Positions 28,384 through 60,010 of a DNA stretch of 64,000 nucleotides are shown here, in pieces. Within the stretch, counting starts at the first letter, position 1; the number at the start of each line of letters is the position of its first letter. The stretch comes from a virus. The DNA is taken from IMG/VR virus record IMGVR_UViG_3300035670_000096. One strand, written 5' to 3'. The translations under genes and the position numbers were made by a program. The notes beneath the pieces are model-generated. The model saw nothing but the letters and a program-made list of their open reading frames with translations. It did not search any database and had not been told where the DNA came from.

Positions 28384-28416
28384 TCACTACCTCCTTTTAT
28401 TCACCGATTCGGAAGT

Positions 28417-29739
28417 TTAATGCTCGTTCCACACCATAGAGCAAGCCTCTACTACCGTATCGCTCCACCCTCCAATCTTTCGCTGAAAAACTGTGTGGTG
28501 GATAGAAGGATTATAGAACTTATTGGCCGCTGGAGTCAAACCCCAGCGCCAGTCTGAGTTCACCGGAACCATTGTATAGCAAGGAGTACCAAGCACGCCT
28601 GCTATGTGAGAGATAGCGGTATCGACCGTAACTACACACTTCAAATTGCTAATAATCGCAGCCAGTGAAACGAGGCCCTTCCGGTCCCACGCCTTCACAT
28701 CATTAACTCCCAAGAACTCCCGCTCCCTATCAGTCAACCCTATCTGTAGAGAGATGCACTTCCTTGATTTAATCAATGGCAAGAACTCCTCTGCCTGAGT
28801 GCTTCGCCAGTGATCATTTTGATGATCCGGATTCCCTCGCCAGCAGATGCCGACATACCCATTGAGATCAGAGGCAAGCGCAGCTATCTGCGGTTCCACT
28901 GAAAGGCACTTCGAGTCGATTTCCGGCGCGTTCCTCATTAGGTCAAACATCCAGATCATACTAGACGCTTTGTAACGCTCAAGTTCAGAAGACCTAATCT
29001 TCTCGGAGAAGATGTTCTCGTATCCTTCATATTGGGCAACGATGTCATCTACAAATGCGTCGTGGCGACCGTCTAGGGAGGTTACAGTAACTTCTACTCC
29101 ACGACGAGACAACTCCAGGATAGCAGGCATCATCATAAGGCAGTCGCCAAGGCCCTGCTCAAGGATTACGCGAACCCCGAGCACCTCAATCGCTTCGTCC
29201 CATCCAGAGAGAAATCGCAGCTTCTCGTAGCCAGGAATCATCTTCGCGTATTGCTCCTCTCTCTTAGCGTACAGCTTGGTCCCGTTTTCGTAGTCCCCAA
29301 GCTGCATTAGCTTCATCCCTAGGTAGACACCTCTCTCATCTCTTAAAAACTGCCTTGCCCTCTCGTAAAACCCGAGCATATCGCAGGCGCTCGCCGCCTT
29401 CAGCTTAACTAGACCGCAGTTCTCGTTATTAAACTTCTCGATTGCCTTATCGCATACCTGAAGGGCCGAAGCAGGATCAAAGTTGAACATATAAGCTTGG
29501 GCTATATTTGCTGCATATTCAGGAATGGGATTCTTGTCGTAAGCAGAATAGAAGTACGAGATAGCGCGATCGTAGTTTTTCTTGTTGAGTAAAACCGAAC
29601 CGAGCGCACTGTGGATAACGTCGATATCGACGCCTCCAAACTTAGTGTCCTCTATTGTCTTGAGGAGGCGGAAAGCCCTATCGTAATCCTTTAGATGAAT
29701 AAAGTTTACGGCAGCTAGATAAACGTCAGAGGTCAGCAC
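28417..29739 (-). CDS. TPR-repeat protein fused to a GT9-like (heptosyltransferase-fold) glycosyltransferase
   Basis: The N-terminal ~170 aa has TPR-like A/Y/F periodicity (YDRAISYFYSAYDKNP..., YERARQFL). The C-terminal part has GLGDCLMMMPAILEL and VVTVDTAISHIAGVLGTPCYTMV. Confidence 0.6.
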   Translation of the reverse strand: MLTSDVYLAAVNFIHLKDYDRAFRLLKTIEDTKFGGVDIDVIHSALGSVLLNKKNYDRAISYFYSAYDKNPIPEYAANIAQAYMFNFDPASALQVCDKAIEKFNNENCGLVKLKAASACDMLGFYERARQFLRDERGVYLGMKLMQLGDYENGTKLYAKREEQYAKMIPGYEKLRFLSGWDEAIEVLGVRVILEQGLGDCLMMMPAILELSRRGVEVTVTSLDGRHDAFVDDIVAQYEGYENIFSEKIRSSELERYKASSMIWMFDLMRNAPEIDSKCLSVEPQIAALASDLNGYVGICWRGNPDHQNDHWRSTQAEEFLPLIKSRKCISLQIGLTDREREFLGVNDVKAWDRKGLVSLAAIISNLKCVVTVDTAISHIAGVLGTPCYTMVPVNSDWRWGLTPAANKFYNPSIHHTVFQRKIGGWSDTVVEACSMVWNEH

Positions 29740-33671: not shown

Positions 33672-34317
33672 TAACCAGCCTCATTAGATCGACTCCACTG
33701 TTTTTCTGAACGTAATCATCCGGGTCCATCCCCTCGGGGAGCGTGACCACTTTAATCGGAAACCGCTCTTCGGCCAGTCCTTCCGCCGCACGCAATGCGG
33801 CACGAGAACCAGCAGAATCTCCGTCATAACAAAGCGCAACCCAATCAGCATACCGCTTCAACAGCCTCAACTGATGCCTTGTCATTGCCGTCCCGCAAGT
33901 AGCGACAACGTTCCTGATCCCGCACTCCCACAAAGCAGCTACGTCAAAATACCCCTCGACAACAATAGCGTAACCCATATCGAGGATATGGTCTTGCGCT
34001 TTGTCCAAGTTGTACAGAGTACGGGACTTAGAGTACAGAGGGCTTTCCGGCGAGTTGATATACTTGCTTTCGTCTTGCCCTAGTGTCCTTCCGCCAAACG
34101 CAATCAAGTCGCAAGCCGCGTTGAATATCGGAAACATCACCCTGTCGCTAAAGCGGTACATATAGCTGTCGCTAATCCTGCCTGCGTATCCAATCTCCAA
34201 CTCCTCAATCGTTTCATCAGACAACCCTCTGTTGATGAGGTATTCATGAATCTGCGCGTTTCTCCTCAAGTTTTCCTTGAACTCATCGAGATATTTCAGT
34301 AGCATCGGCTGGCTCAT
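33664..34317 (-). CDS. DnaG-type primase, RNA-polymerase/TOPRIM part only
   Basis: EYLINRGLSDETIEELEIGYA, RVMFPIFN..LIAFGGRTL, KYINSPESPLYSKSRTLYN, and TOPRIM VVEGYFDVAAL...DGDSAG. No zinc finger in this ORF. Confidence 0.8.
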   Translation of the reverse strand: MSQPMLLKYLDEFKENLRRNAQIHEYLINRGLSDETIEELEIGYAGRISDSYMYRFSDRVMFPIFNAACDLIAFGGRTLGQDESKYINSPESPLYSKSRTLYNLDKAQDHILDMGYAIVVEGYFDVAALWECGIRNVVATCGTAMTRHQLRLLKRYADWVALCYDGDSAGSRAALRAAEGLAEERFPIKVVTLPEGMDPDDYVQKNSGVDLMRLVNG

Positions 34318-34504
34318 CGACTTCGACTATTCTTTCAATCTTATCGAAGTTGAAAATCTTGACGTGATTTCTAAGATCGAAAAAGTACCCACTCGTTCCA
34401 TCCGGGTAATCGTGCTCCATGTACGAGCAAAGTTTCCACTTGCCGTTTTTCTTTATCCAATAAACTCGATCCTTGCAAACGTCTTTCAGCTTAACATCAC
34501 GCAC
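34283..34504 (-). CDS. hypothetical 73-aa protein between the two primase parts
   Basis: ORF overlaps the zinc-finger gene by 8 nt and the TOPRIM gene by 35 nt. No motif recognised. Confidence 0.45.
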   Translation of the reverse strand: MRDVKLKDVCKDRVYWIKKNGKWKLCSYMEHDYPDGTSGYFFDLRNHVKIFNFDKIERIVEVDEPADATEISR

Positions 34505-35138
34505 TCGAACGCCCCCTTTCTTCTTTTGCCATCGCTAATCGTTTACCAGATAAAAACCACGGAGGGTTCATCGCTCCTGCCCACGACTTTTGGGTTCGGT
34601 AGTATTCCATGAGGTCCTTTTCCGGCATACTCTCCAAGTCGCCAAGGGCTTTCTCTTTTGCCGACGCCTCGATGAAGAACTCATCTCCCTCCTCCCCTTC
34701 CCGCCTAGCTTTCCGATAGTTCCGCCAGACTGCGTTGGTGTAGCAGATCAGAGACTCAATCAGTCCTAGCCGCCACTTCTTGAAGTCCGCCGACTCAGCC
34801 GCCCGTCGCCTAGCCTGAGCCTCGTAAATCTTTCTCTGCTCCGGGCTTAGGTACTCGTCCCTGATTCCGGCCACCTGCTTACAATGCCCGATTGCTTCCT
34901 TAAAGTCAACCCCGTTGATCTGCTGCAAGAAAGAAAACACATCCCCCTTCGCCCCGCATCCGAAGCAGCGAAAGTACCCATGGTCGTCACTGACGCAAAA
35001 CGATGGCGTCCGCTCCTGATGAAAAGGGCAAAGGCCGACCCAGCGATTGCCAGAGGACCCGCTCTTCTTTAGTTCGACATACTCTTTGACGATATCGGAA
35101 AGCCGGATGCACTCCTTCACGTACCCAGCGTCTAGCAT
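34497..35138 (-). CDS. DnaG-type primase zinc-binding domain as a separate protein
   Basis: CPFHQERTPSFCVSDDHGYFRCFGCGAKGDVFSF, followed by a ~120-aa charged helical tail and a stop codon. Confidence 0.8.
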   Translation of the reverse strand: MLDAGYVKECIRLSDIVKEYVELKKSGSSGNRWVGLCPFHQERTPSFCVSDDHGYFRCFGCGAKGDVFSFLQQINGVDFKEAIGHCKQVAGIRDEYLSPEQRKIYEAQARRRAAESADFKKWRLGLIESLICYTNAVWRNYRKARREGEEGDEFFIEASAKEKALGDLESMPEKDLMEYYRTQKSWAGAMNPPWFLSGKRLAMAKEERGRSSA

Positions 35139-41656: not shown

Positions 41657-41730
41657 TGGCTGGCGGAGGAGGAATCGAACCTCCATACCGGGAGTCAAAG
41701 TCCCGTGTTCTGCCGTTGAACTATCCGCCA
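41657..41730 (-). tRNA. tRNA-Gln (anticodon TTG), CCA encoded
   Basis: Folded by hand: acceptor TGGCGGA/TCCGCCA, D stem GTTC/GAAC, anticodon stem CGGGA/TCCCG with loop CTTTGAC, T arm GGAGG-TTCGATT-CCTCC, then G-CCA. Confidence 0.85.
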
Positions 41731-41734
41731 ATTT

Positions 41735-41811
41735 TGGTACTCCCGATAGGGTTCGAACCTATGGCCTTTCGCTTAGGAGGCGAACGCTCTATCCGGCTGA
41801 GCTACGGGAGT
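41735..41811 (-). tRNA. tRNA-Arg (anticodon CCT), CCA encoded
   Basis: Acceptor ACTCCCG/CGGGAGT, D stem GCTC/GAGC, anticodon stem TTCGC/GCGAA with loop CTCCTAA, T arm ATAGG-TTCGAAC-CCTAT, then A-CCA. Confidence 0.85.
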
Positions 41812-41817
41812 TGAAAC

Positions 41818-41893
41818 TGGTGGTCCCACTAGGACTCGAACCTAGAACTGACAGATTATGAGTCTGCTCTTCTGCCGATTGAAGTATGGGACC
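41818..41893 (-). tRNA. tRNA with CAT anticodon (elongator Met or Ile2), CCA encoded
   Basis: Acceptor GGTCCCA/TGGGACC (G1-C72, so not initiator-like), D stem CTTC/GAAG, anticodon stem GCAGA/TCTGT with loop CTCATAA, T arm CTAGG-TTCGAGT-CCTAG. Confidence 0.8.
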
Positions 41894-47382: not shown

Positions 47383-47655
47383 TTAGTGGTCGTCGCCAGA
47401 GGACCACTCGTATCCAAATCCAACTACCGACCCTCTGCCGCTGCCTCTGCTGTGCTCTCCATGGATGGAGTCATCACCAGCTCCGTTCCCATGATTGTAT
47501 CCGCAGCCTTCGCTAATGCCAAGGCCGTCGCCGCTGCCGTCGTTAAAGCCTCCGCCGTCGCTGTAATCGTTTCCGTATCCGTAGCCTATGCCACCTCCTC
47601 CTCCGCTCCCGCCGCCGTAGTTGTTTCCGCTACCAAAGCCGTTGTCTTTAGCCAT
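47383..47655 (-). CDS. Gly/Tyr/Asp-rich low-complexity mini-protein (array A, member 9)
   Basis: Trimmed to MAKDNGFGSGNNYGGGSGGGGGIGYGYGNDYSDGGGF.... ATG lies 6 nt after the upstream stop. Confidence 0.6.
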   Translation of the reverse strand: MAKDNGFGSGNNYGGGSGGGGGIGYGYGNDYSDGGGFNDGSGDGLGISEGCGYNHGNGAGDDSIHGEHSRGSGRGSVVGFGYEWSSGDDH

Positions 47656-47660
47656 TAGTC

Positions 47661-47939
47661 CTAGATTCCGCTCCCTTCTGCGCCACCGCAGCCGTAGCCG
47701 CATAGGTGGTTGCTTTCGATCCGCTGCCAAAGACTTCGTGGCCAGTGCCCCCCGCTGCCGTCCCTCGCGCCGTGGCCGATGCTACAGCCATTACCGTATC
47801 CTCTCTTATTTCCGCTGTCTTCGCAAGTGAAGTCACTTCCGAATCCACACCCGTCGATAAAGCCAATGCTATCCGGGTTCATGTCGCCACCGATAGGGGT
47901 AGTTCCATGGATGTTATTTTCAATCGCTCTTGTATTCAT
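47661..47939 (-). CDS. Gly/Cys/Asp-rich mini-protein (array A, member 8)
   Basis: MNTRAIENN...GFIDGCGFGSDFTCEDSGNKRGYGNGCSIGHG...CGYGCGGAEGSGI. GGGAGG RBS. Confidence 0.6.
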   Translation of the reverse strand: MNTRAIENNIHGTTPIGGDMNPDSIGFIDGCGFGSDFTCEDSGNKRGYGNGCSIGHGARDGSGGHWPRSLWQRIESNHLCGYGCGGAEGSGI

Positions 47940-48165
47940 TTAACCTCCCGGCGCTCTCCTTTTCGCCGTTATCCTCTCCTGCTTGTTCTGCCCTCTCCCC
48001 GCAATCAGTACAGCGTCCATCTTCGAAGGCATGGCCGTATTTTTCGCAAGGTGTCCATTCGTCGTATTTGTTTTCTTCTCCACCACCGCCGCCACTGTAA
48101 GAGTCGTTCCCAAATCCGTCTCCGAAACCGGAGTCATATCCGAATCCGTATTTCCCGTTATTCAT
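47920..48165 (-). CDS. Gly/Tyr/Asp-rich mini-protein with C-terminal Cys knuckle (array A, member 7)
   Basis: MNNGKYGFGYDSGFGDGFGNDSYSGGGGG...CEKYGH..GRCTDCGE. AAAGGA RBS. Confidence 0.6.
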   Translation of the reverse strand: MNNGKYGFGYDSGFGDGFGNDSYSGGGGGEENKYDEWTPCEKYGHAFEDGRCTDCGERAEQAGEDNGEKESAGRLNEYKSD

Positions 48166-48177
48166 ACAGCATCCTTT

Positions 48178-48423
48178 CTACCCATTCCCATCCCCTTCTC
48201 GTTGGCTGGAGCCATATTTACGCCCACCTCCAAAGCCGGAATTAGTGCCGAAGCCGCAGTCTTTGCCACTGCCGTATCCCTCGCTTTTGTCTGTGCCTTT
48301 GCCTATACCTTCGCCGTAGCCGTAACCATCTTCTCTGCCGTCTTCGCCGCCGTAGCAGCCGTTTCCGCAGCCGTATCCCCAGCCGTCTCCGCATTCGTTC
48401 GTCTTGCCGGTTATATATTTCAT
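48178..48423 (-). CDS. Gly/Tyr/Cys-rich mini-protein (array A, member 6)
   Basis: Trimmed to MKYITGKTNECGDGWGYGCGNGCYGGEDGREDGYGYGEG.... ATG lies 2 nt after the upstream TAA. Confidence 0.6.
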   Translation of the reverse strand: MKYITGKTNECGDGWGYGCGNGCYGGEDGREDGYGYGEGIGKGTDKSEGYGSGKDCGFGTNSGFGGGRKYGSSQREGDGNG

Positions 48424-48424
48424 C

Positions 48425-48703
48425 TTACCCGTATCCATCGTCTTCTCTGTATCCGGAGCCGTCGCCGTCTCCATGTCCGTAGCCGCTCCCGTAACTAATC
48501 CCGCATCCACTCACGCAGCCGCCGCCGCCGAATCCTTCGCTGTTATCGGATCCATACCCTCCGCCTTCGTCGTCGTATTTACTCCCGCCGCCCCCAGAGC
48601 CGTAGTCGTCGCCGTATCCATGACCGCTTCCCCAGCCATCCCCGGTGCCATACCTGTCGCCCCAGCCGTCGCCGTATCCGTATCCGTACTCTTCTTTACC
48701 CAT
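48425..48703 (-). CDS. Gly/Tyr/Asp-rich mini-protein (array A, member 5)
   Basis: MGKEEYGYGYGDGWGDRYGTGDGWGSGHGYGDDYGSGGGG.... AGGGAGGA RBS. Confidence 0.7.
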   Translation of the reverse strand: MGKEEYGYGYGDGWGDRYGTGDGWGSGHGYGDDYGSGGGGSKYDDEGGGYGSDNSEGFGGGGCVSGCGISYGSGYGHGDGDGSGYREDDGYG

Positions 48704-48714
48704 GCGTCCTCCCT

Positions 48715-49028
<314 letters not shown>

Positions 49029-49032
<4 letters not shown>

Positions 49033-49285
49033 ACTTCATCCTCTTCGATCTCTCCTGCGCCGTCACTGGAACCGCAGCCGTGACCGTCTTTGTATTCGTC
49101 GCTTAAGCCGTCGCTGTCGCCGCAGCCGTATCCGTCTCCGTCTCCGTCGCCGCCTCCGTCGCTGACTCCGCCGCCTGAGCCGCGACTATCTCCCCAGCCG
49201 TCTCCAATTACGTAGCTGTAGCCGTAGCCGTAAACGGAGCCGCCACCTAGGTCTATGCCGTATCCGTAGCCGTAATCCTCCTTAC

Positions 49286-49289
<4 letters not shown>
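49029..49289 (-). CDS. Gly/Tyr/Asp-rich mini-protein (array A, member 3)
   Basis: MSKEDYGYGYGIDLGGGSVYGYGYSYVIGDGWGD...EIEEDEV. ATGA overlaps at both ends. Confidence 0.7.
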
Positions 49290-49567
<278 letters not shown>

Positions 49568-49594
49568 TTACAATCCCTCCCGTTTATGAATACC

Positions 49595-49627
49595 ACCAGC
49601 GGATTCCTTACTGGCTGATCCGCTGGT
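49595..49627 (-). other. perfect 10-bp inverted repeat (hairpin) between array A members 1 and 2
   Basis: ACCAGCGGAT (49595-49604) and ATCCGCTGGT (49618-49627) with a 13-nt loop. No U-tract follows on the - strand. Confidence 0.5.
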
Positions 49628-49654
49628 GTCTCTAACACTGGCTACAAGTCGTTT

Positions 49655-49927
49655 TTAATTCCCTCCTCCTATGTAGCCGTATCCATCGGACTCCGCGCCT
49701 CCCCTGCCGAACGTTAGGCCGTTCCCAGCCCCGTCATCGCCGATCTTTTCTGCGTTATCCATGCCAAGAATTGCCTCTCTGACATGGCCGAAGCCCCCTT
49801 CCGTTTCCATTATTCCTGTCTGCCCGCCTCCATCGCCATTAGTTTCCTTGCTGCCGAATCCGCTGGCTCTTCCAAAGGTGATACGAGAAACCTTCTCTTC
49901 GTACTCTCTAATGCCTTTGTTTGTCAT
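49655..49927 (-). CDS. Gly-rich mini-protein (array A, member 1, divergent)
   Basis: MTNKGIREYEEKVSRITFGRASGFGSKETNGDGGGQTG...GRGGAESDGYGYIGGGN. Confidence 0.55.
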   Translation of the reverse strand: MTNKGIREYEEKVSRITFGRASGFGSKETNGDGGGQTGIMETEGGFGHVREAILGMDNAEKIGDDGAGNGLTFGRGGAESDGYGYIGGGN

Positions 49928-51791: not shown

Positions 51792-52025
51792 TTATTCGTT
51801 AATCACCCAGGCCCACTTTATTCCTGAGTCTGGGGTTAGTTGATCTTTCCAGGGCAATCCCCCGGTGAAATGTGCGGACACGGAGCCGTGTAGGTCATGT
51901 CCGATTAGGACTGGCTCCCCGTCTGGCATTAGTAGGACGACTCCTGCCGGGATAGAATCCTGTCGCCACGGAAAGCTGTCAATTGAACTGAACTGAAGGT
52001 TTAACAGTCGATCCCTGATGTTCAA
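51792..52025 (-). CDS. hypothetical protein
   Basis: 77-aa ORF. Confidence 0.45.
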   Translation of the reverse strand: MNIRDRLLNLQFSSIDSFPWRQDSIPAGVVLLMPDGEPVLIGHDLHGSVSAHFTGGLPWKDQLTPDSGIKWAWVINE

Positions 52026-52281
52026 TTTGTTTTACCTCTATGATATTGCCGTTTGCCGCCACTCTGAGGTTATCGAGTTCCCAGGTCTTTACCTGTTTCC
52101 AGCGGCCTCCCTCTTCGGTCTCAAAGATAACGACCTTGCTGTAGGCCCTCATTCTGTGATTGCGAAGAGAGAGCTTTATGTAGCAGCTAACTATTAGCTT
52201 AGACTTGCCGCTGCCAAGTCCCACGCGCTCACTGCTCCAGCCGCGCGTCTTTGCCCATTTAATGAATTCTTGCCGCGTCAT
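51979..52281 (-). CDS. hypothetical protein
   Basis: Trimmed to MTRQEFIKWAKTRGW.... ATGA overlap with the upstream stop at 52278-52281. Confidence 0.5.
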   Translation of the reverse strand: MTRQEFIKWAKTRGWSSERVGLGSGKSKLIVSCYIKLSLRNHRMRAYSKVVIFETEEGGRWKQVKTWELDNLRVAANGNIIEVKQIEHQGSTVKPSVQFN

Positions 52282-52694
52282 GATCCACCCCTTAGCTTGC
52301 TTGCTTCCTTGGTCCACCCATCCCTGACTAGCTTGAGGGCATCAGGCAGTTGCATGGCGCACCACTCGATGCCGTCTGCCATTGCTGAGTGCCTGATCTT
52401 TTGCACAGCGGCAAAAGATGCGACTACTGGCTTCTGATCTCTATGCTCATGCTGTCTGATATCCCTGTTTTCATGGTCTCTCAGCAAGGTCCATCCGTTC
52501 CTGGCGGCCTTCCTTCGGGTTGTGACGTACACCCTGCCGCTTTCGTCTTTAGCAGATACAGCGAAGCGTAGCTGGCTGCTGTACAGCTTTACCTCTGCGA
52601 TAGGGGAGGCGGCGGCAAGCGCGATTGGCCGCTTGTCCGCCCCCACATACATATTGCCGTTGAAGTCTGCGATTACGGTTACTCGATATGACAT
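52278..52694 (-). CDS. hypothetical protein
   Basis: 138-aa ORF directly downstream of GATase-II copy a. Confidence 0.55.
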   Translation of the reverse strand: MSYRVTVIADFNGNMYVGADKRPIALAAASPIAEVKLYSSQLRFAVSAKDESGRVYVTTRRKAARNGWTLLRDHENRDIRQHEHRDQKPVVASFAAVQKIRHSAMADGIEWCAMQLPDALKLVRDGWTKEASKLRGGS

Positions 52695-52699
52695 GACTG

Positions 52700-53668
52700 T
52701 TAGTTCCGCCCCTCGTAAGCCTTACGGACAACGGCGATGCTCTCGTCCACGTCGTCCCAAGAGTAGGGGACTCCGTTGCTGTCGTAGAAGACTCCGGCGT
52801 TAAGGCCCTCCGGCTGATCGGCTTGGAACAGCGGGGTTAGCACCTTGCGGCATGGGACACAGAGCGCCATATCGTCGCACTCCGTAGCAATATCCAGCCA
52901 ATCTAGTTCATTGCAATACTCGCAATGCGCCCAGATGTCGGAGCCGTCCTCCCAGGTCTTCAGGTCCTTAGCTGTGATGATGTCGCCTTCGGCCATCTTT
53001 CGGCTGCTCTGAGTAGGGATATTCCACCCACAGTTAGCATCCTTGTCTTCTTCATAGTACTTATCCCAGTCCCAGCTCGTCTGCCGCTGCTGGTAGTTGC
53101 GCGAGTAGTATTTGTTGTATCGGGTGTATCCGACCTGCTCGTAGAACGAGTGCGTATTGCTGTACCAGATGCCGTTTTTCCAGGTGCCTGACTTCTCGTT
53201 AACTAGTGTGATGCTGCCGGAGTCAGCGAGGAAGGCGAGCTTGTTATAGCTGCCTACCCAAGTGCCCAGCATAGCGACAATCTCCTCGTCGCTGATGTTG
53301 TCTTGGTCGATTCCAAGCTGTCGCAACTCTTGGGCGTAATGCCATGTGTCGGACATCAGCTTGTTCTTCTGCTCGATTGCAATGATGCCGTTGTGCGCCA
53401 TGTAAAGCCGCTTGGTGACGCGGAACGGGTGGCAGTTGTCGAGGTTCTTGGTGCCGTGGGTAGCGAAACGATAGTGCAATACGTAGGGGTTGCCCTTCGC
53501 TTTCTCAAGCAGCGGTTCCAGTTCGCTGAACTTCATGCCTTTATTGATTATCAACCCGGAACCGTCCGAGTGCATGAGGCCCCAGCCATGCGGGTTATCG
53601 CTCCAGCCGCGCTCGATTACCCCGCACGTAGGGACTTCTCCGGTAGGTGATGCAATGATTAAGCACAT
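52700..53668 (-). CDS. class-II glutamine-amidotransferase-type Ntn hydrolase (copy a) with C-terminal Cys-knuckle extension
   Basis: Start set to Met-Cys (MCLIIASPTGE) with a GAGGAG RBS. GWGLM, VLHYRFATHG, NCHPF, MAHNGII. C-terminal CEYC...CVPC. Confidence 0.75.
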   Translation of the reverse strand: MCLIIASPTGEVPTCGVIERGWSDNPHGWGLMHSDGSGLIINKGMKFSELEPLLEKAKGNPYVLHYRFATHGTKNLDNCHPFRVTKRLYMAHNGIIAIEQKNKLMSDTWHYAQELRQLGIDQDNISDEEIVAMLGTWVGSYNKLAFLADSGSITLVNEKSGTWKNGIWYSNTHSFYEQVGYTRYNKYYSRNYQQRQTSWDWDKYYEEDKDANCGWNIPTQSSRKMAEGDIITAKDLKTWEDGSDIWAHCEYCNELDWLDIATECDDMALCVPCRKVLTPLFQADQPEGLNAGVFYDSNGVPYSWDDVDESIAVVRKAYEGRN

Positions 53669-53681
53669 ATTCTTTTCTCCT

Positions 53682-54983
53682 CTATTTCTCTGTGGTTCTT
53701 GTCCCGACATAGCGGGGGTTTGGGTGGAACGCTCTGCTCGATAGGTACTCATCGAGGTTAGGAAATTCTTTCCGGTTAGCTTTGACGAATTCCAGGAACC
53801 GCCCAGCCGACAACTCCCTGTAGCTACGGTCGCGCGTGAAGTCGATTGTGGCTTTGACGAACTCTAGATTTTTCAGAATCCGGTCCTTTCGCATGTTGCC
53901 GCGAAAGATGCGAAACTCGATAGTCTGCCTGTTCTCCAGGTTGACGGCCTCATATCTCTCTTCGCTGTGGGCGCAATGACCGATCTTCTTATCCGCCTTC
54001 AGTATCCCCCACTTATTGCAAGCCCGTTGCGCTACGGTCTTCACTAGGTCGTGGTTTTCCGGCGCGTTAACGAAGACGACGATCTTCTGGATGTGCATCT
54101 TCGTTAGTGGTGCGCGGGATACGTGGACGTGAAACCCGCAGGTCCCTGAGGTATGGGAGGACAGTCCCGGAATATCTTCGTTCCACTGGTCCTGCCATAG
54201 CTTGCGAATCTCTTCCCAGGTGTGCGGGTGGGTGACGATCTCGAAGCCGCGACCGATACTGGAGTCCTTCTTTAGGTAGGCCCGGTCTTTCATTAGCGCC
54301 GCGACTTCTACGGCTTTATCTTCAACGTCTTCATCGTCGTCCACTGCTACCTCTAGCTCGCAGCCGAAGTAGAGAATCTTGTCCTTGGGCTGCTGCTTGG
54401 TCCCGAAGAACCTAGGCTTAGGCTTAAAGCAGTATCCAAATATGGGATTACCTTCAACCACGGAGTCGTAGCAGTTCCCGCAATACCCATGGCCTTCAAA
54501 TATCTGTAGGTAGGCAATCCTCACGCAGTTACCGCAACTATGGCAATCGCGGTAGTATTCTTCATGGCATCCGTTACAGATAAGGCCCAGATGTCCAGTC
54601 ACCGAGATACCCTGGTTCTCCTGTCTGCTGACATGATCCCCGCAACTATAGCACTGAAACGTGTTTTCACTGAAGCAGCGCTCGCAGGCTACGCGGACCC
54701 CTGGATGAGTGTTAGGCATTAGCTCGGAGCTTCGATTGTAGCTTAGAGACGAAACCGGCACCTCTCTCTGGCAGCAAGGGCAGGCCGCCCGTGTTTCTCG
54801 TCCGTGATACGAATTGTAGCAATTGTCGCAGATGAACCTGCTGGGTCCATTCAGCGGTCGAAAGCTGCCGTCTTCGTTCACGGCTACCGCATCGCCATAG
54901 CCAGCGTAAGCCGTCCAGGCCCAATCTTGGCTTCTCACGCTGCGTTCCGTCCCGCAAATGCCGCATTGATAATTGAATGGCAT
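53682..54983 (-). CDS. multi-zinc-ribbon protein fused to an Amidoligase_2-type COOH-NH2 ligase domain (copy a)
   Basis: The N-terminal ~190 aa carries about 8 CxxC pairs (CGIC, CDNC, CPCC, CERC, CYSC, CNGC, CHSC, CGNC). The C-terminal part has GCELEV, KKDSSIGRGFEIVTHP, GTCGFHVHVS, RYEAVNL and TIEFRIFRGN. Confidence 0.75.
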   Translation of the reverse strand: MPFNYQCGICGTERSVRSQDWAWTAYAGYGDAVAVNEDGSFRPLNGPSRFICDNCYNSYHGRETRAACPCCQREVPVSSLSYNRSSELMPNTHPGVRVACERCFSENTFQCYSCGDHVSRQENQGISVTGHLGLICNGCHEEYYRDCHSCGNCVRIAYLQIFEGHGYCGNCYDSVVEGNPIFGYCFKPKPRFFGTKQQPKDKILYFGCELEVAVDDDEDVEDKAVEVAALMKDRAYLKKDSSIGRGFEIVTHPHTWEEIRKLWQDQWNEDIPGLSSHTSGTCGFHVHVSRAPLTKMHIQKIVVFVNAPENHDLVKTVAQRACNKWGILKADKKIGHCAHSEERYEAVNLENRQTIEFRIFRGNMRKDRILKNLEFVKATIDFTRDRSYRELSAGRFLEFVKANRKEFPNLDEYLSSRAFHPNPRYVGTRTTEK

Positions 54984-54984
54984 A

Positions 54985-55122
54985 CTATTCTCCTTTCTTC
55001 ATTCTCCAGCAGAGTAGAACATAGGATACACCAGTCGCCATGATTGGCGCAAGTGTCGGCCAGTTCCGGGGAGAGAAAACTCCATGCACCGGGCAGAAAA
55101 GAAATTCATAGGCGTCATTCAT
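54985..55122 (-). CDS. possible 45-aa ORF (below the track cutoff)
   Basis: Read by hand: MNDAYEFLFCPVHGVFSPRNWPTLAPIMATGVSYVLLCWRMKKGE*. It fills the gap between two genes exactly but has no clear RBS. Confidence 0.25.
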   Translation of the reverse strand: MNDAYEFLFCPVHGVFSPRNWPTLAPIMATGVSYVLLCWRMKKGE

Positions 55123-55124
55123 GA

Positions 55125-55355
55125 TTAGGTCCTTTCGATTTTGGTAATGATTCCGTTATCGCTAACGTAGAGGTTAGTCCGGTCGAGTACGTCCAGCGCA
55201 CCAGTGATAAACATATCCGCCTTTGCCTTGTTACGGGGGTAGACCCTCTCTGCCTCCGGCCTGCATCCGGGGAAGTAGTCTCCGGCGCACAAGGTAGCCG
55301 CCCATAGCTTACCGCTTACCATTGCCTTATGTAGGCTATCCGCTTGATTGTTCAT
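55125..55355 (-). CDS. hypothetical protein
   Basis: 76-aa ORF. Confidence 0.5.
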   Translation of the reverse strand: MNNQADSLHKAMVSGKLWAATLCAGDYFPGCRPEAERVYPRNKAKADMFITGALDVLDRTNLYVSDNGIITKIERT

Positions 55356-55411
55356 TCATTCCTCCTATATGTAGAATCTTATCACTGATTTAGTTGTTCT
55401 GTCAACGCTGT

Positions 55412-55654
55412 TTACTGAATTTTGTGCAGTAACCACTCCCTGTCAAAGCGTGTCTTGTGGGTTAGTTCAATCGCCCACTGGCTCCAGCCCATCGCTTTAG
55501 CCGTCTCCGCTGCCGCGAAGTCATGATTAGCATCTTTATTCAATCCCTTGTAGGCAGTTAGCCTGTACCACTGGACGCCGTTAACGTACACAGCGATCCA
55601 TTTCAGTTTGCCTCTGAGTTTGCGGTCTGCGGTCCTGATGTTGATTGATTCCAT
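55412..55654 (-). CDS. hypothetical protein
   Basis: Trimmed to MESINIRTADRKLRGKLKW.... GGGAGA lies 6 nt upstream. The longer track ORF runs through the preceding repeat gene. Confidence 0.5.
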   Translation of the reverse strand: MESINIRTADRKLRGKLKWIAVYVNGVQWYRLTAYKGLNKDANHDFAAAETAKAMGWSQWAIELTHKTRFDREWLLHKIQ

Positions 55655-55667
55655 GATCATTCTCCCT

Positions 55668-55979
55668 TTATTGGTAATTAGCGCTGCCGTGTCCCCGTGT
55701 TCCATTGCCGCCGCTTTTGTTGCCGGAGCCGTAACCGTCTCCGCATCCGGAGCCGCAGCCGTCGCAGGAGTTGGAGTCGTAACCCACATGGCTTATACTG
55801 CTACCGCCTCCGTCGCTGTAGCCCCTGCCGCTACCGGAGCCGTGGCTATATACTCCGCCGTCTCGGTAGCCCCAGCCTTCCCCGTAGCCGCAGCCGTATC
55901 CGTATCCGTCGCCGCAGCCGCAGCCGCAGCCGTAGCCGCAGCCGTATCCGATTCCTTTGTTGAATTCTTCGTAAGTCAT
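55668..55979 (-). CDS. Gly/Tyr/Cys-rich mini-protein (array B, member 6)
   Basis: Trimmed to MTYEEFNKGIGYGCGYGCGCGCGDGYGYGCGYGEGWGYRDGG.... AGAGGGG RBS. Confidence 0.65.
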   Translation of the reverse strand: MTYEEFNKGIGYGCGYGCGCGCGDGYGYGCGYGEGWGYRDGGVYSHGSGSGRGYSDGGGSSISHVGYDSNSCDGCGSGCGDGYGSGNKSGGNGTRGHGSANYQ

Positions 55980-55989
55980 TGTCCCCTCT

Positions 55990-56097
55990 TTATTTGTGTT
56001 GGCCGCCGAAGCCGTCGCCGGAGCCGCCGCCATAACCTCCGCCTAGACTTCTACCGTAGCCGAAGCCGAAGCCGGAACTGTAATCCTCCTTACTCAC
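55990..56097 (-). CDS. 35-aa Gly/Phe/Tyr-rich peptide, GTG start (array B, member 5; below the track cutoff)
   Basis: Read by hand: (M)SKEDYSSGFGFGYGRSLGGGYGGGSGDGFGGQHK*. GTGA overlap with the upstream stop. The N-terminus matches MSKEDYGYGYG of the 49029-49289 gene. Confidence 0.45.
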   Translation of the reverse strand: MSKEDYSSGFGFGYGRSLGGGYGGGSGDGFGGQHK

Positions 56098-56378
56098 ATC
56101 CCGATACCGCTGCCGTCGCCGTCGCCGCTGCCGTAGCCGCTGCCGCATCCGTCCCCGTCGCCGTCGCCGTAGCCGGAGCCTTCTCCGCAGCCATAGCCGT
56201 GATCGTAGCCGCCTCTGCCGTCGCCGTATCCGCTACTGTCGCTGTATCCGTTACCGTCCCCGCCGCAGCCGTAGCCTTTGCCGTCGCCTTCGCCCACTCC
56301 TCCGACGTGGCCGGAGCCGGAGCCGTAGATCCATCCATGGCTGTAGCCGCCGTAATCATACCTGATTGATTCGTCCAT
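56094..56378 (-). CDS. Gly/Tyr/Asp-rich mini-protein (array B, member 4)
   Basis: MDESIRYDYGGYSHGWIYGSGSGHVGGVGEGDGKGYGCGGDGNGYSD.... GGAGGGG RBS. Confidence 0.7.
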   Translation of the reverse strand: MDESIRYDYGGYSHGWIYGSGSGHVGGVGEGDGKGYGCGGDGNGYSDSSGYGDGRGGYDHGYGCGEGSGYGDGDGDGCGSGYGSGDGDGSGIGM

Positions 56379-56380
56379 GA

Positions 56381-56629
56381 CTATTCCCCTCCGTCGTCTT
56401 CGTCGCTTCTTCCGTTTCCGTCTCCGTCTCCGTGGCCGTAGCCAGTTCCGTAGTCGCTGCCATCGCCGCTGCCGTAGTCTGTTCCGTAGTATTCTCCGCC
56501 GCCGTAGCCTTTCCCGTAACCTGAACCGCTGCCGCTGCTGTCGCCGTGGTAGTAGCCAGGGCCATATCCTTCTCCAGATCCGTAGCCTTCAGCGCATCCG
56601 CCGTAATCATAACTGATTGATTCATCCAT
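56381..56629 (-). CDS. Gly/Tyr/Asp-rich mini-protein (array B, member 3)
   Basis: MDESISYDYGGCAEGYGSGEGYGPGYYHGDSSGSGSGYGKGYGGGEYYG.... GAGGAGAA RBS. Confidence 0.7.
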   Translation of the reverse strand: MDESISYDYGGCAEGYGSGEGYGPGYYHGDSSGSGSGYGKGYGGGEYYGTDYGSGDGSDYGTGYGHGDGDGNGRSDEDDGGE

Positions 56630-56644
56630 TATCGTTTTCTCCTC

Positions 56645-56899
56645 TCACCCATCTCCGCCGCAGCCGTCGCCGCAGGCTCTGCCGTTACCGTAGCCGTATC
56701 GTTCTCCGTAGGCTCTGCCGTAACCGTCGCCGTCACCTTCGCCGCGACCATAGCTGTCGCCGCAGCCACTGCCTCCGCCGTCGCTGCTTCCGTATCCGTC
56801 GAGGTAGCCGTCTCCGAAGCCGCCGCTTTCGCCTCTTCCACGGCTGGAGCCGTGGCCATCGGCATATCCGCCATAGTTATACTTTGCTAATTCATCCAT
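56645..56899 (-). CDS. Gly/Tyr/Asp-rich mini-protein (array B, member 2)
   Basis: Trimmed to MDELAKYNYGGYADGHGSSRGRGESGGFGDGYLDGYGSSDGGGSGCGD.... Start overlaps the stop of amidoligase copy b by 8 nt. Confidence 0.65.
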   Translation of the reverse strand: MDELAKYNYGGYADGHGSSRGRGESGGFGDGYLDGYGSSDGGGSGCGDSYGRGEGDGDGYGRAYGERYGYGNGRACGDGCGGDG

Positions 56900-58094
56900 C
56901 ACTTCTCTCGGCCTCCTTGATAAAAGCGTGCAGCTCAGGGTAAGCCTTGCGGTTGGTTGATACAAATTCAATGAACTTACCGGATGACAGATCCCGATAG
57001 CTACGATCTCGCGTAAAGTCGATTGTCGCCTTCACAAACTGAAGATTCTTCAGTATCCGGTCTCGCTTCAAGTTTCCCTTGAAGATGCGGAATTCGATAG
57101 TGTGATCGTTGCAGACATTAACCGCTTCGTATCGGTCGTAGCTGGTCCCGCACTTACCTATCGTCTTGCCCATTTTGAGAGCCGCCCAGCCGCTTGAATC
57201 GCGCTGGGCTATCCGTCTGACAAATCCCCAATTTTCCGGCGCATTGATGAAGACGACGATCTTTTGTATGTGCATCTTGGTTAAAGCCTTGCGCGAAACA
57301 TGAACATGGAAGCCGCAGGTGCTAGTGTCGTGGCTCTTTAGCCCCTTCACCCCGTCGCCCCAGTCCTCTTTCCACAGCCGCGTGATAGCCTCCCAGGTGT
57401 GGGGATGGGTTACGATCTCGAATCCGTGGCTAATGCTGCCGTCCTCTTTGAGATACACGTGATCCTCGCCCAGCTTGTCGAGGACCTCCTCTGCTTTCTC
57501 ATCCAGGTCTGCGTTGTTTGCTAGCTCCACCTCTAACTCACAACCATAGTAGATCCTGTTGTTTTCCGCACGCCCATTAGGTGAGCCGTGGAACACGGGC
57601 AGCGGCTTATAGTCGTAACCGTGAACGTGTTCTGATTCCGGCCTGTTACAACCGCTGCAATAGTATTCTCCGTTTCTTTCGGAATAATAGAGTTCGTCTG
57701 TCGGTTGCACATCGCCGCAGGAATCACAGCATCCGTATTCGTCGGAGCAATTCGTACAGATAGGCCCGTTGCCCGAGTGCGCCCAGATGTCGTTCTTGTT
57801 CTGTAACTCATCGCAGGCTATACAGGTGAACAGGTTGTTCCTGACACAGCGGGAACACATAATACTCTCGCCTGTTACTGTCGCCGGAGTGTCTGAAAGG
57901 TTGTTCTCACTCACTAGCTGTACACAAACCGGGCAGTTAGCTAGTTCGGACCCTTTGTTGTATCGGTCGCTGCAATCGTCGCATACTAGCGTGCAGACTA
58001 CTAACTCTTCGTCCTCGTTCAGCATTACCGGATCGCCGTTATTGGCATAGATACGGTGAGTTGTTGATGTTGCATCACAGCGTTCGCAGGGCAT
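56892..58094 (-). CDS. multi-zinc-ribbon protein fused to an Amidoligase_2-type COOH-NH2 ligase domain (copy b)
   Basis: N-terminal CxxC pairs (CERC, CDDC, CPVC, CSRC, CIAC, CTNC, CDSC, CSGC). C-terminal GCELEV, LKEDGSISHGFEIVTHP, STCGFHVHVS, RYEAVNV and TIEFRIFKGN. AAGGAGGA RBS. Confidence 0.75.
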   Translation of the reverse strand: MPCERCDATSTTHRIYANNGDPVMLNEDEELVVCTLVCDDCSDRYNKGSELANCPVCVQLVSENNLSDTPATVTGESIMCSRCVRNNLFTCIACDELQNKNDIWAHSGNGPICTNCSDEYGCCDSCGDVQPTDELYYSERNGEYYCSGCNRPESEHVHGYDYKPLPVFHGSPNGRAENNRIYYGCELEVELANNADLDEKAEEVLDKLGEDHVYLKEDGSISHGFEIVTHPHTWEAITRLWKEDWGDGVKGLKSHDTSTCGFHVHVSRKALTKMHIQKIVVFINAPENWGFVRRIAQRDSSGWAALKMGKTIGKCGTSYDRYEAVNVCNDHTIEFRIFKGNLKRDRILKNLQFVKATIDFTRDRSYRDLSSGKFIEFVSTNRKAYPELHAFIKEAERSDG

Positions 58095-58120
58095 GGGTAT
58101 CCTCCTTTGCTCGTTATCGG

Positions 58121-58774
58121 TTAGTTGTCGCCGCCGCTAATCACTATGTCGATAGCGCGGAATGTCTGATACTCGTTCGTCACCCAGTCTAGCTGTCGCT
58201 GGAGATAGGCCGCCTCCTCGCGCCAGTAGGCAGCTTCGTCGATGGCAAGGTTGTTGCTGTACCAGATATCGCCCACAGCCTCCCCCATATCCTCGTTAAT
58301 GATGGTTATGCGACCTTGGGCGTCCATAAAGGCGAGCTTGTTGCTCCAGCCTACCCAATCGGCGATGCAGTCCTGTACGCCTTTGTCTTGCAGTGTCTCC
58401 TCATCTAGCCCGATCTCCGCTAGTTTAGATGCGAAGTGGTAGGAGTCAGATCGCGCCTCATCGGTTATCTCGATGCCGCCAATGATGCCGTTATGCGCCA
58501 TGTAAAGGTATGGCGTTACCTCGAAGGGATGGCAGTTATCCCGCGTCTTCGGTCCATGAGTCGCCCATCGGTAATGGAGGACGTAGGGCGTGCCGGGGAC
58601 TATCTGCTGTTTGATGGCCTTGTCCAGGTCGTCTTTGGATAGCCCCTTAGTGATCTTTAGCTGGTCCTCCTTTGCCGTCATTAGGCCCCAGCCATGCGGG
58701 TTTCCATCCCATGCGCGGGTTAGGATGTCCTGCTTGGGCAGTTCTCCCGTCTTAGATGCAATGATTAAGCACAT
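58121..58774 (-). CDS. class-II glutamine-amidotransferase-type Ntn hydrolase (copy b)
   Basis: Start set to Met-Cys (MCLIIASKTGE) with an AGGGAGGA RBS. GWGLM, VLHYRWATHG, NCHPF, MAHNGII. Confidence 0.75.
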   Translation of the reverse strand: MCLIIASKTGELPKQDILTRAWDGNPHGWGLMTAKEDQLKITKGLSKDDLDKAIKQQIVPGTPYVLHYRWATHGPKTRDNCHPFEVTPYLYMAHNGIIGGIEITDEARSDSYHFASKLAEIGLDEETLQDKGVQDCIADWVGWSNKLAFMDAQGRITIINEDMGEAVGDIWYSNNLAIDEAAYWREEAAYLQRQLDWVTNEYQTFRAIDIVISGGDN

Positions 58775-58793
58775 ATTCGATCCTCCCTTTGTC

Positions 58794-59057
58794 TTAGCTT
58801 TCGCTGTCGCTGTCGCCGTCGCCGTCGCCGCTGCCGTCATAGTAGCCGAAGCCGCCGCAATCCCCCCTGCCGCTGCCTTCAAACAGGTCTCGACTGTTTC
58901 CTCTCCCGATCATATCGCCGGAGCCGACACTGAAGCCGTTGCCATAGCACCATATGTAGCCGTCGCTGTCGCTACAGCCTGCTCCGCTGCTGACTCCGGA
59001 GGTCAAGAAGCCACCTGATTCAACGCTTTCATCGAAGAAGCTTATGCTCTCGTTCAT
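58794..59057 (-). CDS. Gly/Ser/Asp-rich mini-protein (array B, member 1)
   Basis: MNESISFFDESVESGGFLTSGVSSGAGCSDSDGYIWCYGNGFSVGSGD...GGFGYYDGSGDGDGDSDSES. AAGGAGAGGA RBS. Confidence 0.6.
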   Translation of the reverse strand: MNESISFFDESVESGGFLTSGVSSGAGCSDSDGYIWCYGNGFSVGSGDMIGRGNSRDLFEGSGRGDCGGFGYYDGSGDGDGDSDSES

Positions 59058-59136
59058 TAGATCCTCTCCTTTACTGGTTAATGCTAATCCCGCTATCCCC
59101 GCACACTAGCCGGAGCTAATATGCGGGAGGGAGGGA
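59058..59136 (-). repeat. conserved intergenic element, diverged copy C
   Basis: Shares GGTTAAT and CCCGCTAT with copy A and GGACTAG with copy B. Contains a CCCGCA...TGCGGG hairpin. Precedes a gene start. Confidence 0.4.
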
Positions 59137-59430
59137 CTAGGCCGACCAGACCGGGACCGATTCGATGCTGGCGCGTGCCGCGTCGGTGCAGGGGATGATC
59201 TCGACCGCTTCGGTCAAGAGCACCTCGCTAACCGGGCAAGGGAACTTGCAGTTTCCCGGCTTCTTCGTGCCTTCCATGGCGAGCTGGGAGAGGCTGGCAG
59301 CCCCATCCCAATACCAGATCCGCCGCGCATCGGCCAGCGTCACCTCGCGGCCTTCGCGGGAGACGAGCGTTCCGGCGAAGACCCCGGCGCTGTAGGTGCG
59401 AACGATCACGTACTTGTTATTCATGTTCAT
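59137..59430 (-). CDS. hypothetical protein (locally GC-rich gene)
   Basis: 97-aa ORF. Two 60-nt lines counted by hand gave 39/60 and 36/60 G+C. Confidence 0.55.
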   Translation of the reverse strand: MNMNNKYVIVRTYSAGVFAGTLVSREGREVTLADARRIWYWDGAASLSQLAMEGTKKPGNCKFPCPVSEVLLTEAVEIIPCTDAARASIESVPVWSA

Positions 59431-59543
59431 GAGTAGTAGTTTCCTTTTCTTTTCTTCCTGGTTACGTCCAGGCCCGTTTGTTATGCTTCTATGTTAGCGT
59501 AGAATTGAGTTGTTGTCAATAGCTACCCCGAAAAAAAGAGAAC

Positions 59544-59744
59544 TTATTTTTCCGCTTCCCGGTAGTACTGCTCGATCCAATAGCGGTTGGCGAAGTAGGC
59601 GAGAAGGGAGATCCCGGCGACGGCCAGAGCTTTTTCGGCATTGGTCGCGTGCATCTGGAACGTGGCGTAAACGCCAATGATCGAGTTAATGACGATCATG
59701 GAGATTGCTTTGGCCGCTGCTTTGGTTTCTTGTCTCATGCTCAC
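59544..59744 (-). CDS. small membrane protein (two hydrophobic helices)
   Basis: 66-aa ORF: AISMIVINSIIGVYATF...LAVAGISLLAYFA. Confidence 0.5.
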   Translation of the reverse strand: MSMRQETKAAAKAISMIVINSIIGVYATFQMHATNAEKALAVAGISLLAYFANRYWIEQYYREAEK

Positions 59745-59788
59745 CTTTCTATTCTATTATGCGATAGAACTTTTCCGTTGTCAATCGG

Positions 59789-60010
59789 TTAACGGTTAAT
59801 CTCCGCGTGAGAGTTACTGTTAAAATTGCAGTTGGTCCGGACGGTGAGCAGGTCGCCGTTGCGGACGGTTAGAGTTACGGTCACGCCGCTGCCCTCGTTA
59901 GCGCGGCAAAGGCCCGCATACATGGACTCGGCAAGCGAGACATCGGAGCCGCGCCACACTGTACCCTTGTTTCCCATCGAGATAAAGCACTGGTTAGGAA
60001 TCGTTGCCAT
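59789..60010 (-). CDS. hypothetical protein
   Basis: 73-aa ORF with its start coupled to the upstream EEA-stop junction. Confidence 0.5.
   Translation of the reverse strand: MATIPNQCFISMGNKGTVWRGSDVSLAESMYAGLCRANEGSGVTVTLTVRNGDLLTVRTNCNFNSNSHAEINR

Follow-up and report, generated by a model that had tools for sequence, protein, structure and literature searches.

Introduction

The closest described relatives of the enzymes analyzed here are those of a phage and mobile-element module, in which an amidoligase of the Pfam family Amidoligase_2 is combined with a class-II glutamine amidotransferase (GATase; GAT-II), and which was reportedly recognized by Iyer, Abhiman, Burroughs and Aravind in 2009. 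We examined a 64,000-nucleotide stretch of viral DNA (IMG/VR record IMGVR_UViG_3300035670_000096), hereafter the window, which is part of a tailed-phage genome and carries two such enzyme pairs among short open reading frames (ORFs) for Gly/Tyr-rich (GY) proteins. A preliminary description of positions 52,700 to 59,057, made from the letters alone, had proposed that the GY peptides are substrates or products of the enzymes. Our comparisons indicate that the window probably contains two independent phage modules interleaved in its early-gene region, namely the amidoligase/GATase pair and a family of GY genes whose usual companion encodes a protein of the DUF6948 family.

As in the known Amidoligase_2/GAT-II modules, the two enzyme families of the window are adjacent, on one strand and in an early region, and the partner is of the Cys1 type. 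The window differs from them in that its amidoligase subfamily has an N-terminal array of about four LIM-like zinc fingers, and in that it holds two copies of the module whose genes are arranged in opposite order. Pairs of this putative type have been listed before in numerous phages, as the preliminary description had noted, among them phiEco32, the LUZ24-like phages, the mycobacteriophage Marvin and the OM43 phages MEP401/402 (PMC10580990).

Two groups of characterized enzymes are also related. The amidoligase shares a predicted glutamine synthetase (GS)-like carboxylate-amine ligase fold with PafA and Dop, which were the best Foldseek matches of its catalytic domain and provide a precedent for such a fold acting on the terminal Glu/Gln of a protein. 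In contrast to the phage enzyme, PafA and Dop have neither zinc fingers nor an N-terminal nucleophile (Ntn) partner; identity to them is about 12%, with template modeling (TM) scores of 0.2-0.26, and no conserved small protein resembling Pup accompanies the phage module. The partner protein shares with GlmS, PurF and AsnB the N-terminal Cys, the Arg of HxR, the Asn-Gly of HNG and the Asp of SDT, but it is a stand-alone glutaminase unfused to a synthase, its Pfam scores lie below the gathering cut-off, and the acceptor enzyme of the pair has a predicted GS fold. To our knowledge, no characterized amidotransferase combines a GS-fold acceptor enzyme with a class-II glutaminase.

Co-occurrence of the amidoligase/GATase pair and GY genes across viral genomes

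The two paralogous enzyme pairs, which we call amidA/gatA and amidB/gatB, were confirmed at the positions given in the preliminary description (Table 1). Both are on the minus strand with inverted order (amidA then gatA; gatB then amidB), and the paralogues are 46% (amidA/amidB) and 45% (gatA/gatB) identical. Such duplication is not unique to the window, because multi-copy enzyme modules were also found in unrelated phages (loci L028, L035, L042, L071 and L014/L015), either as two amidoligases with one GATase or as one amidoligase with two GATase-like genes.

We collected 80 IMG/VR loci with a profile of the zinc-finger amidoligase, each with flanks of ±10 kb, and added a sister contig (L001) and a GenBank phage record (L002), giving 82 loci. 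A GATase gene adjoined the amidoligase gene on the same strand in 72 of these, and eight of the ten exceptions were cut by a contig end. Only the sister contig, whose amidA is 71% identical to that of the window, had GY-rich ORFs; in the other 81 loci no GY ORF was found within ±10 kb, under relaxed criteria as well. The expectation that GY-rich ORFs would also lie beside Amidoligase_2 genes in other phages thus failed outside the window and its sister contig (0 of 81 loci), the GY genes going with DUF6948 instead. Neighbor clustering over the 82 loci revealed no third gene that travels with the pair, and the other recurrent neighbors reflected lineage synteny. A third conserved gene that might encode a substrate of the pair was looked for in the 82 loci, and none recurred.

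A homology search with GY4 returned 704 word-sharing candidates, none of them significant, because composition filters remove such candidates; GY loci were therefore collected by scanning for the degenerate codon pattern GYGxGxGYGxG, which yielded at least 120 viral loci. No amidoligase and no partner GATase was present in the 120 GY loci listed (988 kb), 52 of which contained strict GY mini-ORFs (60-130 aa) with short unique leaders, often in tandem paralogous arrays. Among 80 loci retrieved through DUF6948 alone, the enzymes were found in one, which is the sister contig, and none of the 25 phage-database records with the amidoligase was among the 16 with DUF6948.

The same separation was seen among close relatives. 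In seven syntenic phages, the amidoligase/GATase genes, ParB, a 60-aa ORF, ERF and SNF2 occur in this order. DUF6948 and GY ORFs are present in three of them (the window, L001 and L286), and both are absent from L003, L287, L288 and L289, which keep two amidoligase copies. When the window was aligned with L001, the enzyme genes and DUF6948 proved collinear at 83-89% nucleotide identity, and the GY blocks were the only parts that could not be aligned. The interval from ParB through the 60-aa ORF to ERF is compact in L286-L289 and holds no GY cluster of this kind, and the second, larger GY cluster of the window is an insertion into this interval.

These results bear directly on the proposal that the Gly/Tyr- and Asp-rich mini-proteins are encoded substrates or products of the enzyme pairs, in the manner of ribosomally synthesized and post-translationally modified peptides (RiPPs), with the zinc fingers recruiting their leaders. 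The window does resemble RiPP systems superficially, in that short ORFs with shared leaders lie beside enzymes on one strand, an interleaving that also exists in L001 and L286. The GY peptides are rich in carboxylates, the predicted amidoligase fold resembles that of PafA and Dop, enzymes with a protein substrate, and GY3 ends in GGE, as deamidated Pup does. Unlike RiPP precursors, however, the GY genes do not co-occur with the enzymes across genomes and track DUF6948, which is their near-obligate partner. The preliminary description had itself pointed to a lack of co-occurrence in comparative genomics as evidence against its proposal, and this is what was found in both directions outside the sister clade and within the syntenic clade, where four relatives have retained the two amidoligase copies but lack GY ORFs. 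Furthermore, the largest GY cluster lies about 3 kb from the nearest enzyme gene, beside ERF; the GY blocks are hypervariable, whereas the enzymes are conserved; and GY C-termini are not conserved. A Pup-like reading of the GGE end was rejected, as the C-termini vary among the paralogues and in L001. Altogether, we regard a substrate role for the GY proteins as very unlikely, and independence of the two modules removes an attractive but unsupported RiPP-like hypothesis.

Several observations weigh against independence or against the mechanism that we propose below. The interleaving is kept in the window, L001 and L286, and in L286 a GY ORF lies between gatB and amidB; because it is kept in three related phages, a coupling of GY genes with the enzymes that is specific to this lineage has a slight chance of being correct. 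The comparative loci were not independent, many coming from the same metagenomes; the 80 DUF6948 loci were 62-100% identical to the query; and the comparison covered ±4 to 10 kb around each match. In addition, the nearest solved folds of the amidoligase, to which it has low Foldseek TM-scores (0.2-0.36), include PafA and Dop, which act on the protein Pup, and the ammonia-transfer chemistry was deduced from family logic alone.

GY genes are paired with DUF6948

Neighbor clustering of the GY loci identified a protein of about 100 aa, of the same family as the product of the ORF directly upstream of GY1 in the window. This DUF6948 gene and the nine GY ORFs of the larger cluster fell outside the coordinates of the preliminary description. 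In a three-round search, 59 of the 120 GY loci listed had DUF6948 directly upstream in the same orientation; in a six-round search it was directly upstream of the GY gene in 81 of the 100 listed loci with room upstream. Conversely, 75 of the 80 loci that had been retrieved through DUF6948 had room downstream, and of these 75 the next ORF counted as GY-rich in 72 when judged automatically and in 74 on visual inspection. The GY start overlapped the end of DUF6948 at a fixed offset of -13 in 52 of 62 cases, and the leaders were of the form ME(E/K)(V/I). Thus, DUF6948 and GY form a near-obligate, widespread gene pair.

The two parts can also be joined in one protein. A DUF6948-GY fusion ORF was found in L129, and in about 20 loci (among L221-L275, e.g. 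L223:410-982 and L221:4276-5082) the GY tract is a linker of about 14-100 aa between a conserved leader (MDSLTVQEFLKVEF or MEVLTREAFLHTDF) and a conserved C-terminal domain of about 150 aa, which had no match in Pfam. The length of this linker varies between otherwise near-identical proteins of the group.

The pair is present in the cultured Iodobacter phage PhiPLPE, Pectobacterium phage Ymer and Ralstonia phage NK-7, where the GY ORF is unannotated (PhiPLPE), called a hypothetical protein (Ymer) or called a 'fibroin heavy chain-like protein' (NK-7). No mention of DUF6948 or of the DUF6948-GY pairing was found in the literature searched, and searches on Gly-Tyr repeat phage proteins, fibroin-like proteins, or Sm-like combined with glycine-rich proteins returned nothing relevant. 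The pairing is apparently undescribed so far.

In the window, the six GY ORFs around and between the enzyme pairs are on one strand, as first described, with starts and stops tightly packed or overlapping and with leaders that several of them share, that of GY1 (MNESISF) resembling that of GY3 and GY4 (MDESISY). The strong ribosome-binding sites attributed to all of them hold for most, which have GGAG-type Shine-Dalgarno sites 6-10 nt upstream. An alternative 52-aa reading of GY5 from an ATG at 56148 is probably wrong. Gly, Tyr, Asp, Ser and Cys make up 50-81% of the six products, and the GY proteins have 2-16 [GS][YFW][GS] motifs each. With net charges of -4 to -15, five of the six products are acidic; for the sixth, the charge was computed from a longer ATG reading only. 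The codon pattern GYGxGxGYG occurs 12 times in the window versus 0.00 expected from 100 shuffles.

Such repeats might be no genes at all but chance open frames of GC-rich repetitive DNA. All frames of the repeats are indeed open, for example a 253-aa Ala/Val-rich frame on the plus strand (55608-56369), and profile and family searches gave no support, several GY ORFs lacking any match in Pfam, PHROGs and NCBIfam and GY3 alone lacking one in PADLOC. Nevertheless, the ATG downstream of DUF6948 in the GY frame (72-74 of 75 loci), the fixed overlap and the conserved leaders argue that these frames are coding. Other points that speak against a non-coding origin are the Shine-Dalgarno sites before most window copies, the fusions to DUF6948 and to the C-terminal domain of about 150 aa, and variation at the third position of Gly and Tyr codons. 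We therefore consider it extremely unlikely that the GY frames are not genes.

DUF6948 is predicted to be an Sm-like protein

The DUF6948 protein of the window matched PF22253 with 113.5 bits (cut-off 27) over 84 of 85 profile positions, and its AlphaFold2 model had a mean predicted local distance difference test score (pLDDT) of 95.4. The best 50 Protein Data Bank (PDB) matches of this model were all Sm/LSm proteins, and it superposed on archaeal and eukaryotic members with TM-scores of 0.65-0.74 (normalized by target length) and root-mean-square deviations of about 2-2.7 Å. Matches in BFVD were uncharacterized phage proteins named 'DUF6948' and 'Sm-like'. The model thus predicts the bent five-stranded beta-sheet of the Sm/LSm fold, although DUF6948 does not belong to the LSM or Hfq families at the sequence level. 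Between the window and L001, the gene has 24 synonymous and no non-synonymous codon differences. A homology search returned at least 8000 protein clusters (90% identity), all significant, and the usual neighbors were genes of early recombination and replication, which by sequence resemblance encode a YqaJ-like exonuclease, RecT, ERF, SSB and a regulator of the XRE type.

Low-complexity tails rich in Gly occur in several eukaryotic Sm/LSm proteins, and the [GS][YFW][GS] motifs of the GY proteins recall the [G/S]Y[G/S] low-complexity domains of the FUS type. Unlike the Sm/LSm tails, the GY part is in most cases encoded by an ORF of its own with translational coupling, and it is strongly acidic and not RG-rich. 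We consider the chances about even that DUF6948 and GY constitute a widespread, undescribed two-gene phage system, located in the early recombination/replication module, in which a conserved protein of the Sm fold, which probably forms rings and binds RNA or single-stranded DNA, acts with a hypervariable, acidic, FUS-like low-complexity partner that has some 15 copies in this lineage. The mechanism is speculative; the GY protein might organize a condensate or serve as a polyanionic decoy. The GY mini-genes of the window are probably an expanded paralogous family (about 15 copies) of the usual Gly-Tyr partner of DUF6948, copies of which would have reached intergenic sites throughout the early operon in this lineage, including those between the enzyme genes. 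GY1 occupies the canonical position downstream of DUF6948.

Of the two modules, DUF6948-GY appears to be the more interesting lead. A counterpart, in viruses of prokaryotes, of Sm proteins that bear low-complexity tails would offer a tractable entry point. The cultured Pectobacterium, Ralstonia and Iodobacter phages are available for its study, which could show a role of low-complexity proteins in infection.

The enzyme pairs as putative two-component amidotransferases

The motifs quoted in the preliminary description for the amidoligase (GCELEV, GFEIVTHP, CGFHVHVS, RYEAVN and TIEFRIF(R/K)GN) were present in both amidA and amidB, as were eight CxxC pairs within the N-terminal ~190 aa of each protein. 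Its assignment to Amidoligase_2 likewise held, with PF12224 scores of 42 bits for amidA and 27.8 bits for amidB, both of which exceed the cut-off of 22. Since sequence and profile searches of the PDB returned nothing for the catalytic domain, a fold search was needed. Using an AlphaFold2 model of amidA (pLDDT 89.3), Foldseek matched Dop, PafA, glutamine synthetase, GmaS and YbdK with probabilities of 0.95-1.0; because of the low TM-scores given above, the similarity supported is one of fold only. Eight residues (E209, E211, E248, H285, H287, R320, E356 and R358) were invariant across 32 homologues including both window paralogues and, by analogy, may bind metal or ATP. Profile, predicted fold and conserved residues support the view that amidA and amidB are GS-like carboxylate-amine ligases.

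The zinc-finger array weakly matched LIM-type double zinc fingers in PDB searches (E 0.002), and its cysteines were mostly invariant in the alignment of 32 homologues. In a comparison of the window with L001, amidA was ~42% identical in the array and 86% in the catalytic domain, and amidB was 77% and 88% identical, respectively. The DNA encoding the amidA array (54434-54852, residues ~44-183) could not be aligned with that of L001, and yet the cysteines were kept. This divergence with retention of cysteines suggests a fast-evolving recognition module, and it is plausible that the array recruits a substrate, but nothing points to the GY leaders as its ligand.

Both gatA and gatB start with Met-Cys (MCLIIAS) and carry GWGLM, HYR(F/W)ATHG, NCHPF and AHNGII, as first reported, and the Met-Cys start was found in 74 of 76 partner ORFs of other loci. 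The preliminary description had expected GATase_2- or GATase_6-like matches. In Pfam, gatA and gatB remained below threshold, with 21.7 and 25 bits for GATase_6 (cut-off 27) and 18.7 and 15.7 bits for GATase_4 (cut-off 23), and NCBIfam gave local matches only. The proposed Ntn class-II fold was supported, as a profile of 22 partner proteins matched the glutaminase domains of GlmS (3.4e-13) and PurF in the PDB. The partner thus appears to be a divergent member of the superfamily and not of a curated family. In its alignment, C2, R67, N93 and G94 were invariant and D107 was at least 90% conserved; the Arg and Asn-Gly align with HTR and HNG of GlmS, and D107 is inferred to be equivalent to Asp123 of GlmS. 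These sequence comparisons support its identification as a putative Ntn Cys1 class-II glutaminase.

By analogy with these families, each pair would be a self-contained two-gene module that functions as a two-component glutamine-dependent amidotransferase. The glutaminase would hydrolyze L-glutamine via a gamma-glutamyl thioester, the amidoligase would use ATP and metal to convert a carboxylate to an acyl-phosphate, and the released ammonia would amidate it. The LIM-like array may pick a macromolecular target, which would not be the product of a gene travelling with the module. The fast evolution of the zinc fingers and the lack of a conserved third gene suggest that the target is a host or generic molecule. 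Our analysis sharpens the description of the pair as a strictly two-gene unit, the partner of which keeps the glutamine-binding residues of true amidotransferases.

A different chemistry within an equally independent module is less likely, but a close rival: the amidoligase might join the gamma-carboxylate of Glu to an amine of the target, and the Ntn partner, as a gamma-glutamyl amidohydrolase, might mature this mark or take it off again, analogous to PafA/Dop and EgtA/EgtC. Class-II GATase-fold enzymes such as EgtC hydrolyze gamma-glutamyl amides, and all solved relatives that we found (GS, GmaS, YbdK/GCL and PafA) activate the Glu gamma-carboxylate. In the LUZ24-like phages, moreover, Amidoligase_2 and GATase adjoin genes for an ATP-grasp protein, a COOH-NH2 ligase (COOH-NH2_lig) and a gamma-glutamyl cyclotransferase (GGCT)-like protein. 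None of these was seen in the window, where neither an ATP-grasp nor a GGCT gene was noted beside the pairs, and the partner keeps the residues that hold free glutamine (the Arg of HxR, the Asn-Gly and the Asp of SDT), which argues against this chemistry.

We also considered a role of the enzyme pairs in hypermodification of phage DNA bases, for instance by amidating a carboxylated side chain. In viral contigs, Pfam amidoligase and glutamine-amidotransferase genes are associated with thymidine-hypermodification clusters that contain 5-HMUDK and aGPT-Pplase (Lee et al. 2021; PMC8989533). However, a Pfam scan of ~40 ORFs of the window found no 5-HMUDK, aGPT-Pplase or dUMP hydroxymethylase, ThyX and ribonucleotide reductase (RNR) of the phage are ordinary, and no such hypermodification gene recurs beside the 82 amidoligase loci, so that this role seems improbable.

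Genome context and other features of the window

From ~20.5 to 64 kb, the genes of the window are almost all on the minus strand, and this arm encodes RNR, ThyX, two glycosyltransferases, DnaB, DnaG in two parts, an intein-containing SNF2 helicase, ERF and ParB. The enzyme pairs and GY ORFs sit within this early/replication arm (Table 1).

Table 1. Coordinates of the enzyme genes, GY ORFs and other features of the window
Feature	Position	Strand	Remarks
amidA, 433 aa; eight N-terminal CxxC pairs (LIM-like zinc fingers) and C-terminal Amidoligase_2 domain	53682-54983	-	Pfam PF12224 1.3e-10
gatA, 322 aa with C-terminal extension; putative class-II (Ntn, Cys1) glutaminase, partner of amidA	52700-53668	-	Met-Cys start; Shine-Dalgarno site
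amidB, 400 aa; paralogue of amidA with the same architecture	56892-58094	-	Pfam PF12224 2.9e-6; collinear with L001, 83% nt identity
gatB, 217 aa; paralogue of gatA, upstream of amidB	58121-58774	-	Pfam GATase_6 2e-5; NCBIfam local matches GlmS (5.3e-11) and PurF
DUF6948 protein, 97 aa; predicted Sm/LSm-like fold	59137-59430	-	Directly upstream of GY1; Pfam PF22253 5.1e-33
GY1, 87 aa; Gly/Ser/Asp-rich, leader MNESISFF	58794-59057	-	Canonical position downstream of DUF6948, as in other phages
GY2; leader MDELAKYNYGG	56645-56899	-	Start overlaps amidB stop
GY3, 82 aa; leader MDESISYDYGG, net charge -15	56381-56629	-	
GY4, 94 aa; leader MDESIRYDYGG	56094-56378	-	
GY5, 35 aa; VSKEDYSSGFGFGYG...	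55990-56097	-	GTG start overlaps GY4 stop as GTGA
GY6, 103 aa; Cys-containing, MTYEEFNKGIGYGCGYGCGCG...	55668-55979	-	
Second, larger GY cluster; nine tandem mini-ORFs, leaders e.g. MSKEDYGYGYG, MGKEEYGYGYG, MNNEEHGYGFGYG	47383-49927	-	Between ERF recombinase and the 60-aa ORF downstream of ParB
Three small ORFs (45, 76 and 82 aa) between GY6 and amidA; not Gly-rich	54985-55660	-	Conserved with L001, 87% nt identity
SNF2/ResIII helicase, 948 aa	42297-45143	-	Intein_splicing/PT-HINT matches at residues ~144-488
Three neighboring tRNA genes, Gln(TTG), Arg(CCT) and Met(CAT)	41657-41893	-	
DnaG-type primase, split	33664-35138	-	CHC2 zinc-finger ORF 34497-35138; catalytic-core/Toprim ORF 33664-34317
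73-aa ORF between the two DnaG parts	34283-34504	-	
DnaB, 705 aa	31554-33671	-	C-terminal domain likewise matched in two stretches (see RNR)
Two glycosyltransferase-like genes within the replication module	27289-29739	-	One GT4; the other with TPR repeats and a weak sub-threshold GT9 match
RNR small subunit, 636 aa	20565-22475	-	Family match in two stretches, best at residues 387-598
1739-aa protein	14711-19930	+	Virion-gene block; NUDIX domain residues 828-945; C-terminal ADP-ribosyltransferase exoenzyme domain residues 1551-1720
RecA homologue, full-length	9050-10027	+	Pfam 3.9e-101; inside plus-strand block of large virion-type genes

A megablast search of positions 52000-60000 against phage genomes returned no match; the phage has no close cultured relative. 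One database protein was 100% identical to amidA over the 65% that aligned and another was fully identical to the DUF6948 protein of the window; both were recorded from the same JGI contig. The three small ORFs between GY6 and amidA had no match in Pfam or PHROG searches.

Outside the two modules, the 1739-aa protein with NUDIX and ADP-ribosyltransferase domains is a polyvalent effector that is probably injected. The SNF2/ResIII helicase carries an intein, as its orthologues in L286 and L289 have only 591-592 aa, and the RNR small subunit and DnaB may carry inserts as well, e.g. inteins.

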